A stretch of 64,000 nucleotides of DNA, taken from assembly GCA_048886685.1 (NCBI GenBank), contig JBHLKM010000002.1, positions 135,532 through 199,531 of the forward strand. Reading direction: 5' to 3'. The stretch is from Candidatus Hodarchaeota archaeon (GTDB taxonomy: Archaea > Asgardarchaeota > Lokiarchaeia > Sigyniarchaeales > SOKP01). The notes beneath the pieces are model-generated. The model saw nothing but the letters and a program-made list of their open reading frames with translations, was not told the origin of the DNA and did no database searches. This document shows, piece by piece, positions 27,665-42,739 of the stretch (position 1 is its first letter; each line of letters starts with the position of its first letter). The position numbers were made by a program, and so were the translations under genes.

Positions 27665-28405
27665 TTAATAATCATGCAGAACATTATCAATAGAGAGGAT
27701 AAATCCAAGTAAGATCCGTCTATCAGTTTCATTATCTAGTATTCTCAATGCGTATGTATCCTTAAAATCTAATAATCCGCCAAGAAAAATATCTCTCCAC
27801 CTATCAGCTTTCTCAATTTCTGCAATTAAATTCCCTGACATATCTGTAACTTTATACGACCACCCCATAAATTTTCCTTGTGCTTCGAAGTATCTTTTGC
27901 CATTAACATCTTCCAAGAAAAATTTTGGACGGAAAACAGAAGTTATTTTTTTCTTAATTCGTGCTATCATATTTCCATAAGGGTCTTTTAAATCCTGTGC
28001 ACCCCGAGCTGATACAATCTTTGAGTGAATAGTAGCAGCTATAGTGCCATCTAACTCAAGTAATTCGACTCTGCGTCTTATACTTAAGATAACTCTTCTC
28101 ATTTTCCCAATAACTTGATTGTTTTCATCTAAAATGTCGCCAGAACCCCAATCCCAATATTTTTAAAGAATTCAGACGAGTTGTCGGGATTTTTCTTTAA
28201 GGATATAATAATTGCGATTGAGATCGAATAATCCACCTGGGCGATCGTATGGCTCAAAACCCAATGTTGTTACTGGTCTGGCTGTTGCAACTGTAGTGAC
28301 AACCTCTCTCTGTCTAGGTGCAGAGGAGACTGGTGAACCACACTTTTCACAGAAGTTTTGAGTTTCGGGATCTTTAATTTCCGCTCCACAATCTTTACAA
28401 TACAT
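27665..28405 (-). CDS. Zinc-ribbon + LURP-one/scramblase (Tubby-C-like) protein, split by a 30-nt intron (exons 28405-28193 and 28162-27665; 236 aa spliced)
   Basis: ORFs 28172..28405 and 27665..28102 are in the same frame; removing 28163-28192 gives YYILKEKYWDWGSGDILDENNQVIGKMRRVILSIRRRVEL, a LURP-one-like first repeat; C-terminal KDTYALRI...ILLGFILSID. Confidence 0.8.
28163..28192 (-). other. Predicted 30-nt BHB mRNA intron in the scramblase-like gene
   Basis: AAAUCCCGACAACUCGUCUGAAUUCUUUAA; central helix AAAG/CUUU, bulges AA^A and AA^A, inner stem with 7 of 9 positions paired, loop AACUC; contains in-frame UGA and UAA. Confidence 0.75.
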
Positions 28406-28555
28406 TTGATCATCTCATGTTAATTTATTTATGGTAAAAATGGTAACTTATTTTAATAAAGTTTAGGGAAACCAATATTTATTATAATCCTTATCAAAAT
28501 ATTTTAATTAAGTAAGGTTTATTTAATATTAATATTATACAGTGAAGAAAAGAGA

Positions 28556-29323
28556 ATGTCAAGTATTAAGATTCCACAGCTGTTAAAACTAAAAGATTAC
28601 ATAACTCTTATAGGGACAAGTCTTGGAATAATAGCTTTAGTTTGCGCATGTATGGGTACTCGTGCCACACTATCCTTAGGATTTTTTCTAATTTCTATCT
28701 CAACAGGTACAGATATGATCGATGGCTATATTGCCCGTAAAACAAATACGATGAATCAGATGGGTAAAGAGCTAGATTCTTTAAGTGATTCGTTAACATT
28801 CGGTATCGCACCGGCACTTTTAACTTACCAAAGTTTTAAAACTGATACGTTATTTGACATTATTCTAATAATTGGATCAATTTGTTTTGCTATTGGAGCA
28901 ATACTTAGATTAGCGCGATTTAATATCTCTGAAGTTCCTGGATACACAGGAGTGCCTACCCCTATTAGTGCTTTACTCCTAATTGTATATTTCTATGCTA
29001 ATTACTTTTATGCTTTTGGAATGGGGGGCATCACATACCCTTTTCCAGAATTTGCTTCATACTTAATCCCTTTCATTATGATAATGATCTCTTGGTTTAA
29101 TATTACTGTATATATCAATTTCGGTGAAAAAGATAAAACTATTTATATCATTTTTCTAATTATTGCCCCATTATGCCCAATTTTTGGCATTATTGGAATT
29201 TTAAATCCTAATTTCTTAATTTCAATGATAGTTTCAGGTTTCTTTTTAATTTCTTTTTTATTTGCTCTTATTTTTATCCTTCGAGGATTCTATTTATATA
29301 TTTCAAAAAAAAGAAAATATTAA
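28556..29323 (+). CDS. pssA: CDP-alcohol phosphatidyltransferase (archaetidylserine/phosphatidylserine synthase type)
   Basis: DMIDGYIARKTNTMNQMGKELDSLSDSLTFGIAP motif; LRLARFN; GVPTP. Confidence 0.85.
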   Translation: MSSIKIPQLLKLKDYITLIGTSLGIIALVCACMGTRATLSLGFFLISISTGTDMIDGYIARKTNTMNQMGKELDSLSDSLTFGIAPALLTYQSFKTDTLFDIILIIGSICFAIGAILRLARFNISEVPGYTGVPTPISALLLIVYFYANYFYAFGMGGITYPFPEFASYLIPFIMIMISWFNITVYINFGEKDKTIYIIFLIIAPLCPIFGIIGILNPNFLISMIVSGFFLISFLFALIFILRGFYLYISKKRKY

Positions 29324-29352
29324 TGTCTAAAAGACAAGATAAGAAAAATTTC

Positions 29353-40755: not shown

Positions 40756-40854
40756 TAAAAATTCTCCAATTACTATTCAATATATATTGCTAATAAAAAC
40801 TGGACTCCAATTTTTTTTTAATAGTATAAATATTATTTTTATTTAAGAATAACT

Positions 40855-41364
40855 ATGAATATTGATTGGAGTATGTTTCAAACTGGTTGGGATTATTTAT
40901 GGGAAGATCCCGTTGGATGGTTTTTAGAATTACCCTTGCTTAGCCAGATTTTTGTTATCATTGGAATTATTGTACTCACTATACTTGCTGTTGTTTTAGT
41001 TTATTATATTTTGAAAGGGGTAGCATACTTATTATATTACTTGTTTAAAGGATTATATTACCTTTTTAAGGGTATTTTCCTTGGCCTTTATAAATTATTT
41101 CAGGCATTATACTATGCTATTTCAGGAAAACCTAAGAAAAAAGAAGAAATGATACCACAAAGTCCCGGAACTCCAACAATTTCTCCTCAACAAGTAAATA
41201 ATTTAATCGAAAGAAATGAGATAAGAATTCCTAGCTATTGTACTGAATGTGGACAAAAAATTACAGAATCAATGGAATCCCTTCTAACCTCAAGAGGTAT
41301 AGCCTTCTGTTTTTATTGCGGCAAGCAATTTGAATTGAAAGTTGCTGAAAATCCTAGGTATTAG
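40855..41364 (+). CDS. Membrane-anchored zinc-ribbon protein
   Basis: Hydrophobic/amphipathic KGxYYLF repeats, C-terminal YCTECG...FCFYCG. Confidence 0.65.
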   Translation: MNIDWSMFQTGWDYLWEDPVGWFLELPLLSQIFVIIGIIVLTILAVVLVYYILKGVAYLLYYLFKGLYYLFKGIFLGLYKLFQALYYAISGKPKKKEEMIPQSPGTPTISPQQVNNLIERNEIRIPSYCTECGQKITESMESLLTSRGIAFCFYCGKQFELKVAENPRY

Positions 41365-41407
41365 AACTTATCTTATTTAAAAAAATAAAAAAAAAAAGAA
41401 TCATTAC

Positions 41408-42739
41408 CTAAAAGATATTTTCATCTAAAACTATAGTTTCAGTTCTATCAGGACCAATTGAGATCATGGCTATTTCTGTTTCTAATTCTTCTTTAATTGC
41501 TTGAATATAGACTTTCATTGTATCTGGTAATGCATCATAGCCTTTTAATGCGATTTCTAACCACTGATCTCTTTTGAGTTCTTCCCATCCCTCAAAGGTT
41601 CTATATATTGGTTTACACTTTTCAATTATTTCATGTTGAATCGGCCAGCTTTCAAGAATTTCACCGTCTAATTTGTAAGCAGTACACATTTTTATAGGGC
41701 TTATACCCTGTAAAGCATCTAAAAGAGTAATGACAATTTTATCTATTCCATTTATCATTATCCCATACTTAATATTAAAGAGATCAATCCATCCTATTCT
41801 ACGTGGTCTTCCTGTAACTGTCCCATATTCATGACCCTGCTCTCGAATTTTTTCAGCAGTGTTATTAAATAATTCTGTAGGAAACGTTCCAGCTCCTACT
41901 CTCGATGTATAAGCTTTTATAACTCCTAATATTTTTTTTATCTTTTTTGGGGGGATACCTGTACCTGCAGAAATTCCTAATGCATTCGAACTAGATGATG
42001 TACCAAAGGGGTAAAATCCATGATCAATACCTAAAAGGTTACCCTGAGCGCCTTCAAATAAAACTTTTTTACCTTCATCGATAGATTTATTTAAATAGTA
42101 AGCAGAATCAATTACATAATGTTTAAGTTTCTCTCCATATTTTTTATATTCTTGATATATTCTTTCAAAAGATTCATCCCAATTAGGATCATAGTTTTTT
42201 ATTTGTTTTTTTTTGATTTCAAAGAGCTTTTCTAGTTTTGGTTTTAGAAATTCAGGATGTATTAAATCAAATACTCGAATGCCCCAGCGTGCAACTTTAT
42301 CAGAATATGTAGGACCAATACCTCTTTTAGTTGTACCTGCGCTATACTTCCCTTTTGATTCTTCTTCTAAGCCATCTAAAACCCGATGGAATGGAAAGAT
42401 TACATGTGCAGTTGAACTTAGTTTCAAATTTATTTTTTTATCAAGTTTTTTTAAATTATCTATTTCTTCGAGTAATACCTTTGGATCAATAACACATCCA
42501 TTCGCTATAACACATTCTTTTTCTAATGGAGCTCCACTGGGGATGAGTTTGAATTTATATTTAATTCCATCAGCCTCAATTGTATGACCTGCATTATTTC
42601 CCCCGTTATATCTTACAACGATATCTGCTTTCTGTGCTAAATAATCAACAAATTTGCCTTTTCCCTCGTATAGGGCTGACATGCGATTTGCATGTTAAAC
42701 TCCCCACGAGAGACCTATTACGGCAATGTTATCACTCAT
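41408..42739 (-). CDS. purA: Adenylosuccinate synthetase, split by a 30-nt intron (exons 42739-42700 and 42669-41408; 433 aa spliced)
   Basis: Spliced N-terminus [22 protein letters not shown]; [46 protein letters not shown]. Confidence 0.93.
42670..42699 (-). other. Predicted 30-nt BHB-type mRNA intron in purA
   Basis: UUUAACAUGCAAAUCGCAUGUCAGCCCUAU; central helix GGGG/CCCU, bulges AG^U and AU^A, inner stem with 8 of 9 positions paired, loop AAAUC, exon-exon stem CUCUCG/CGAGGG; in-frame UAA. Confidence 0.85.

Follow-up and report, generated by a model that had tools for sequence, protein, structure and literature searches.

The 64,000-nucleotide stretch of DNA analysed here (the window; contig JBHLKM010000002.1, positions 135,532 to 199,531, from a 4.4-Mb, 30% GC assembly of a Candidatus Hodarchaeota archaeon of the Lokiarchaeia) carries two unrelated protein-coding genes that are each interrupted by an insert: purA, encoding adenylosuccinate synthetase, and a gene for a scramblase-like, LURP-one-related (LOR) protein (Table 1). 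An earlier sequence-only reading of the window had described both inserts, and the coordinates, 30-nt lengths and in-frame stop codons it gave are correct at both sites. Each insert can be drawn with its host exon as a bulge-helix-bulge (BHB), and the evidence assembled below makes it very probable that these and similar inserts elsewhere in the genome are mRNA introns of the archaeal tRNA type, spliced by EndA and RtcB.

Table 1. Features of the two interrupted genes in the window.
Feature	Position	Strand	Description
LOR/scramblase-like gene, whole	27665-28405	minus	zinc ribbon + LURP-one-related domain
LOR exon 2	27665..28162	minus	LURP-one-related, PF04525
LOR predicted BHB intron (site 1)	28163..28192	minus	30 nt, two in-frame stops, 7/9-bp stem
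LOR insert, central-helix strand	28165-28168		
LOR insert, loop	28178-28182		5 nt
LOR exon 1	28193..28405	minus	zinc ribbon, 71 codons
LOR exon 1, central-helix strand	28195-28198		AAAG
purA, whole gene	41408-42739	minus	433 amino acids (aa) once 42670-42699 removed
purA exon 2	41408..42669	minus	adenylosuccinate synthetase, PF00709; intact; sole purA of genome
purA predicted BHB intron	42670..42699	minus	30 nt, 8/9-bp stem, stop is the codon next after the junction
purA insert, central-helix strand	42672-42675		
purA insert, in-frame AUG	42680-42682		taken as start by gene callers
purA insert, loop	42685-42689		5 nt
purA exon 1	42700..42739	minus	13 codons + first base of conserved Asp codon
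purA exon 1, central-helix strand	42702-42705		GGGG
purA exon 1, one arm of 7-bp exon-exon helix	42707-42713		

Left unspliced, the purA frame reaches a stop after 14 codons. Removal of the insert brings back the WGDEGKGK motif in a single register, which is also the one set by the BHB cut, and shifting the excision by 1-4 nt gives V, Y or a stop. The cut falls between bases 1 and 2 of the conserved Asp codon. For the LOR gene, excision yields a 236-aa protein; seven registers are equivalent, of which the BHB singles out the one in Table 1. Both predicted spliced products, the 433-aa PurA and the LOR protein, agree with intron-less orthologues.

The two inserts had been parsed identically as 1 + 9 + 5 + 9 + 4 + 2 nt (bulge, stem, loop, stem, central-helix strand, bulge), a layout that holds at both sites, although neither 9-nt stem is fully paired (8/9 in purA, 7/9 in LOR). 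The central helix forms 4/4 pairs in both. At the outer junction of purA, a 7-bp exon helix closes a relaxed 1x3 loop, and the outer helix of LOR consists of 2 bp plus a distant stem. Inner hairpins are more stable than those of shuffled sequences, and the purA insert segment folds strongly (z -3.7), with the forced BHB conformer 2.6 kcal/mol above the minimum. Among random coding positions, 0.3% show a perfect 4-bp helix in which both bulges open with A. At the cut defined by homology, the complete central helix is present in 19/22 purA, 7/7 LOR site 1 and 8/8 LOR site 2 inserts (site 2 is described below), and it collapses once the cut is slid from that position. An Rfam search with both window inserts matched no family.

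The enzymes that the earlier reading called for are encoded in the genome, where genes for the EndA alpha and beta subunits and for RtcB were found. In an alignment with PDB 3ajv/3p1z, the catalytic Tyr, His and Lys of EndA alpha are all retained, as is the lysine of the L1/CSL loop; this loop lysine is as in the Aeropyrum enzyme, and the EndA is of the broad-specificity, two-subunit type. An L1 loop has been reported in Asgard EndA and tied to cleavage of relaxed BHBs (PMC5829648). About 18 tRNA genes of the genome contain introns of 16-38 nt, many of 27-31 nt and many at non-canonical positions, with rough intron boundaries in the multi-intron tRNAs. A 30-nt intron in tRNA-Ala parses as the window inserts do and has a 5-nt loop closed by C-G. 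The intron-bearing tRNA genes lie on contigs C1, C5, C6, C7, C10, C15, C16, C30, C33 and C38, with many of the introns in the D arm, and ARAGORN mislabels several of the tRNA genes (for example Pro as Pyl).

We propose the following model. Once transcribed, the final six bases of the exon and the 3´ end of the intron would together form a 4-bp helix flanked by two A-led 3-nt bulges. The two-subunit EndA would cut each bulge behind its second base and RtcB would ligate the exons; the frame would be restored, in most cases along with a conserved motif, while a message left unspliced would stop early. Such introns would be a class scattered over the genome, about 20 in each genome of this Lokiarchaeia family and usually of 29-31 nt with a 5-nt loop, which in size and loop would resemble many tRNA introns of the same genome. 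Each site would have been gained or lost repeatedly among relatives, apparently at the DNA level and together with a few exon bases. We infer alike that the RNA is cut and rejoined in the cell, which enzyme acts on it, and by which route sites come and go.

Comparison across relatives shows how the inserts behave; related species are not independent samples, and the counts are to be read as patterns, not P values. Across the order, 16 of 152 genomes have the purA insert; the genus of the present genome accounts for 15 of the 16, the present genome among them. Among 24 carriers it occupies one common site and measures 30 nt (2), 31 nt (18) or 32 nt (4), so that most copies change the reading frame. 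Only one carrier, cut by a contig end, lacks an intact exon 2, exon 1 remains conserved, and the ratio of nonsynonymous to synonymous substitution rates (dN/dS) is 0.059 in carriers and equally in non-carriers; the hosts are thus free of pseudogene decay, as the earlier reading had expected. The Gly codon is GGA in 24/24 carriers, which supplies the A of the bulge. LOR site 1 is occupied in 8 of 159 genomes by inserts of 27-30 nt. In some species (loci L040, L042, L050, L052, L054, L056, L066 and L091) the LOR gene has its insert elsewhere, 12 nt into exon 2 (site 2), again 30 nt long and of BHB type, in eight distinct sequences. The second codon of the site 2 insert is a stop in 8/8, as TAG, TAA or TGA, and this invariance suggests selection for a stop. 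No species examined has both LOR sites, and where a relative is without an insert, its absence is precise.

Pairing between intron and exon is maintained through sequence change. At LOR site 1, pair 3 of the helix covaries with the wobble base of the exon (A-U in three cases, G-C in two, G-U in two). The rnhB intron occurs in 45 genomes of the family, the present one included (one additional match is due to chance), and in 0/26 genomes from other families. A hand count finds its Gly wobble base paired with the intron partner in 44/45 genomes (U-G 19, G-C 12, U-A 8, C-G 5).

In the present genome we count 18 sites in 16 genes, a lower bound made up of sites that were found or re-derived. Comparison with intron-less homologues gave those in purA, LOR, gamma-carbonic-anhydrase-like, uvrB, dnaG, cobO, PAC2-like and cdhA genes, the gene names being assigned from motifs and general knowledge, and Pfam searches gave those in rnhB and uL11. 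Motif restoration and geometry only were used for pfk (2), thiolase (2), acetoacetate-CoA ligase, GlcF-like, alpha-mannosidase and thioredoxin. In a thiolase gene (C3 76487-76567, plus strand), two introns lie on either side of a 16-nt micro-exon. The predicted cut sites fit the EndA rule at 18/18 sites; A is the opening base of the first bulge at 17/18 sites and of the second at 18/18, and the central helix has four pairs at 10 sites and three at 8. At 16/18 sites an unspliced message meets a stop within 7 codons. Each of the eight frame-preserving inserts tested contains a stop, for which the joint chance is 0.008, a figure inflated by detection bias. A control with mirror geometry returned 0 homology-supported matches, against 5 for the true geometry. 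A homology-free scan for a BHB with frame restoration gave 24 hits at its loosest cut versus 15 in the mirror control; being no better than the control, it was not used for counting.

The expectation that BHB-type inserts form a dispersed class across protein-coding genes is borne out by these 18 sites, but the density of the window (two per 64 kb, or ~140 per genome) overstates their number about sevenfold. In a complete congeneric genome of which 36% was sampled, 5 sites were found, which scales to 14-18 (range about 5-40), and a capture-recapture estimate, in which 4/5 sampled sites were also in a separate list of 17, is near 21. A genome likely holds about 20 sites, or one to two dozen. 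The congeneric sample has its own inserts, 0 of them common to the present genome, and a filtered search for introns common to the present genome and genome G005 gave none that was convincing. Around the LOR gene in about 70 species, with 1145 of 1987 candidate sites covered, only the two LOR sites were seen. No inserts were seen in a small sample (400 kb) of a complete genome from a neighbouring family, and the E1/ThiF genes of the present genome have no internal stop. Two further inserts were noted in G005. The first (L181:5103-5155) interrupts a GyrB/topoisomerase-type motif; at 53 nt it exceeds the length of the main class, and it has two hairpins and BHB-like ends. The second (L148:11071-11100) is a BHB insert of 30 nt in a zinc-finger gene, its 5-nt loop closed by C-G, and it is missing from the orthologue in the present genome.

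The fixed length of 30 nt that the two window inserts had suggested does not extend to the class. The lengths of the 18 inserts centre on 30 nt but vary: 29, 30 (8), 31 (4), 33, 34 (2), 35 and 37 nt. The closest purA carriers have a 31-nt insert, so that the 30 nt of the present genome probably reflect a one-base loss; the exact match of the window inserts is partly coincidence. The loop is 5 nt long at 11/18 sites. A genome-wide search with the exact CAAMUCG descriptor returned only the two window sites (2/18), and among orthologues this loop is found in 1/7 at LOR site 1 and 7/22 in purA. A looser CNNNUCG loop is present in 6/18 inserts versus 0.44 expected from shuffles, which ignore hairpin stability, and also in most rnhB and purA orthologues; its enrichment may be a structural preference instead of a sign of ancestry. 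Nine 30-nt inserts agree on average at 11.75 of 30 positions, versus 8.8 in shuffles, a mean that includes one 28/30 pair accounted for by a pfk fragment. That fragment is a short truncated pfk copy (C5 near 244202, plus strand) with a 28/30-identical copy of the second pfk intron, either a DNA-level duplicate or a contaminating fragment. The two window inserts align only in patches, and by sequence the inserts are not copies of one another. A common mobile origin or a loop-recognition factor, as once proposed from the shared loop, is not shown; the inserts are not near-identical, and the loop varies at LOR site 1 and most other sites.

Several points count against splicing as we propose it, beyond the relatedness of the species compared. 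No spliced transcript or intron circle was seen, and a scan of contigs for the spliced purA junction gave 0 matches with almost no power (the unspliced control gave 1). At 8 of the 18 sites the assignment rests on motif restoration, without alignment to intron-less orthologues, and 8 of the 18 central helices contain a mismatch. The canonical conformer is not the energy minimum at most sites (median +2.7 kcal/mol). The LOR insert segment folds weakly (z -1.3), and because its BHB conformer lies 6.8 kcal/mol above the minimum, LOR alone would be a weak case. An in-frame AUG or GUG is present inside the purA insert in 9/24 carriers.

These start codons bear on the possibility that the inserts are retained, with the genes inactivated or truncated proteins made from a start in or after the insert. 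Databases do list 424-aa PurA proteins, and public annotation places the PurA start inside the insert, the mis-annotation that had been predicted. Entries P0001-P0005, P0034, P0051 and P0128, NCBI records among them, either begin within the intron, which makes them 423-425 aa long, or translate across it from a false start. P0128 was considered as a full-length PurA and rejected, as it reads through the insert from a CTG start. The close 433-aa forms among cluster members were likewise set aside as candidates for transcript-derived PurA, being genomic intron-less alleles with different flanking codons. An internal start is lacking in 15/24 purA carriers, and a truncated PurA would be without its first strand and without the conserved Asp, which has a catalytic role and lies in a motif conserved in solved structures. 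Carriers show no decay and keep exon 1 conserved; purA is single-copy, RNase HII and uL11 have one match each and are split too, and several inserts lie mid-gene. Retention is therefore very improbable.

We give a similarly small chance to removal by another route, whether by a dedicated nuclease or loop-binding factor beyond EndA alone or by DNA excision in part of the population. The CNNNUCG enrichment, the weakness of several helices and the occurrence of insert-bearing and insert-free alleles in close relatives could be taken in this way. Cut sites obey the EndA rule throughout, though, and the loop that such a factor would bind is free to vary at LOR site 1 and most other sites. DNA excision would leave the GGA-GAC junction of the carriers, and this is kept in 0/22 intron-less purA alleles.

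Programmed ribosomal bypassing of the T4 gene 60 or yeast mitochondrial byp type, in which the ribosome hops the hairpin and the RNA stays uncut, appears slightly less plausible still. Short hairpin inserts with an early stop would suit it; the UCG ending of loops seen here is reminiscent of the T4 gene 60 hairpin, and matching take-off and landing codons exist at 3/18 sites, LOR among them. The matched pair is absent at the other 15, and at five sites (purA, both pfk, thiolase 2 and GlcF-like) no whole-codon register yields the conserved protein; in purA, a hop would usually place Tyr or Asn at the Asp position. Bypassing would also leave the 4-bp helix with its A-led 3-nt bulges, and the covariation of that helix, unexplained. 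An assembly or sequencing artefact, conceivable for a metagenome-assembled genome with 8% estimated contamination, can be set aside almost entirely, since divergent homologous inserts lie at the same base in the purA and LOR site 1 carriers and inserts recur in independent JGI and NCBI assemblies.

If the inserts are EndA/RtcB-spliced introns, as we favour, their distribution bears on how such introns come and go. Carriers are scattered on the purA tree (exon 2 only, midpoint root, bootstrap not fully settled), which needs 10 changes, at least 6 of them forced by well-supported branches. Patchy presence on gene trees points to repeated gain or loss, which these trees do not separate. At target codon 13 of intron-less purA (window 42701-42703), GGA is rare (2/20, versus 45% elsewhere in the gene), and it is as if this codon were either invaded or avoided. 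Between the present genome and the nearest intron-less purA allele, 9/42 bases differ around the junction versus 6.6% overall (P 0.001). In 2/4 sister pairs at LOR site 1, flank divergence is likewise raised, while another purA pair gives a borderline result and LOR site 2 pairs show nothing. Exchange of short DNA tracts, or selection on the flanks, fits this divergence better than clean loss via spliced complementary DNA would. More speculatively, the mini-introns could be actively spreading, protein-free elements that invade conserved housekeeping motifs wherever a BHB can form, move between relatives by recombination carrying 15-20 exon bases, and push intron-less alleles off the target codon. 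We hold this to be possible and on balance doubtful; were it true, genome-wide mRNA splicing, possibly regulatory, would have evolved independently in Asgard archaea.

Other features of the window were noted as well. An IFT52-GIFT/DUF4350 domain gene (window 42958-43890, plus strand) is divergent from purA, an arrangement retained in many relatives. Immediately 3´ of the LOR gene lies a gene (26274-27434, minus strand) that combines a weak gelsolin repeat with an HeH/Rho_N-like motif at its C-terminus, and the window also encodes an archaeal RNase P RNA (55176-55496, plus strand; RF00373).

Our results matter in several ways. Archaeal mRNA splicing inside coding sequence has been documented for one gene only, cbf5. 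About 20 sites per genome, in one family of the closest prokaryotic relatives of eukaryotes, would demonstrate that neither a spliceosome nor a nucleus is needed for introns to spread through protein-coding genes, the tRNA machinery being used instead. The inserts are not spliceosomal introns, and nothing in the analysis marks them as ancestral to those. Close species differ at single sites, which opens intron gain and loss to direct study, a problem named as open in a preprint on Asgard tRNAs (bioRxiv 10.64898/2026.10.13.758758). In public annotation, genes such as purA, rnhB, uL11, dnaG, uvrB, cdhA and pfk are truncated or mis-started, affecting metabolic reconstruction and marker-gene trees.

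Searches of the openly accessible literature turned up no paper on mRNA introns in Asgard archaea; the cases they returned were cbf5, an intron in a Haloferax 5´ untranslated region (UTR) and the introns of Asgard tRNAs. Splicing of the cbf5 pre-mRNA intron was shown in Desulfurococcales and Sulfolobales, with predictions for other genes mentioned alongside and left untested there (Yokobori 2009, PMC2738675). The inserts described here share with it a BHB, putatively of relaxed type, in coding sequence, a predicted cut between bulge bases 2 and 3, lineage-specific absence and database mis-annotation, and in purA, as in cbf5, the break falls behind the first base of a catalytic Asp codon. In contrast to the one site, one gene and demonstrated splicing of cbf5, we describe at least 18 sites in 16 unrelated genes, known from sequence alone, with two alternative LOR sites across species, a narrow size range and frequent turnover. 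The 5´ UTR intron of Haloferax volcanii HVO_1309 (Schwarz 2020, PMC7714728, where cbf5 is named as the only other example) is likewise an mRNA substrate of EndA set by a BHB, as we predict here, but it is 46 nt long, lies outside coding sequence and was the single case in a systematic survey.

Among tRNAs, repeated gain of BHB introns at non-canonical positions has been described in the Asgard preprint cited above, with mRNA unmentioned, and transposed introns are known in Thermoproteales (reviewed in PMC4090602). These too are short BHB introns gained repeatedly on terminal branches, whereas the hosts here are protein genes and, unlike in Thermoproteales, the present genome showed no set of near-identical introns in unrelated hosts. 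The byps of Magnusiomyces and T4 gene 60 are similar in that short hairpin inserts break the frames of working genes; they need the matching take-off and landing codons missing at most sites here, and they are without BHB geometry. Set beside these systems, the chemistry we propose is known, and its scale and dynamics are new.

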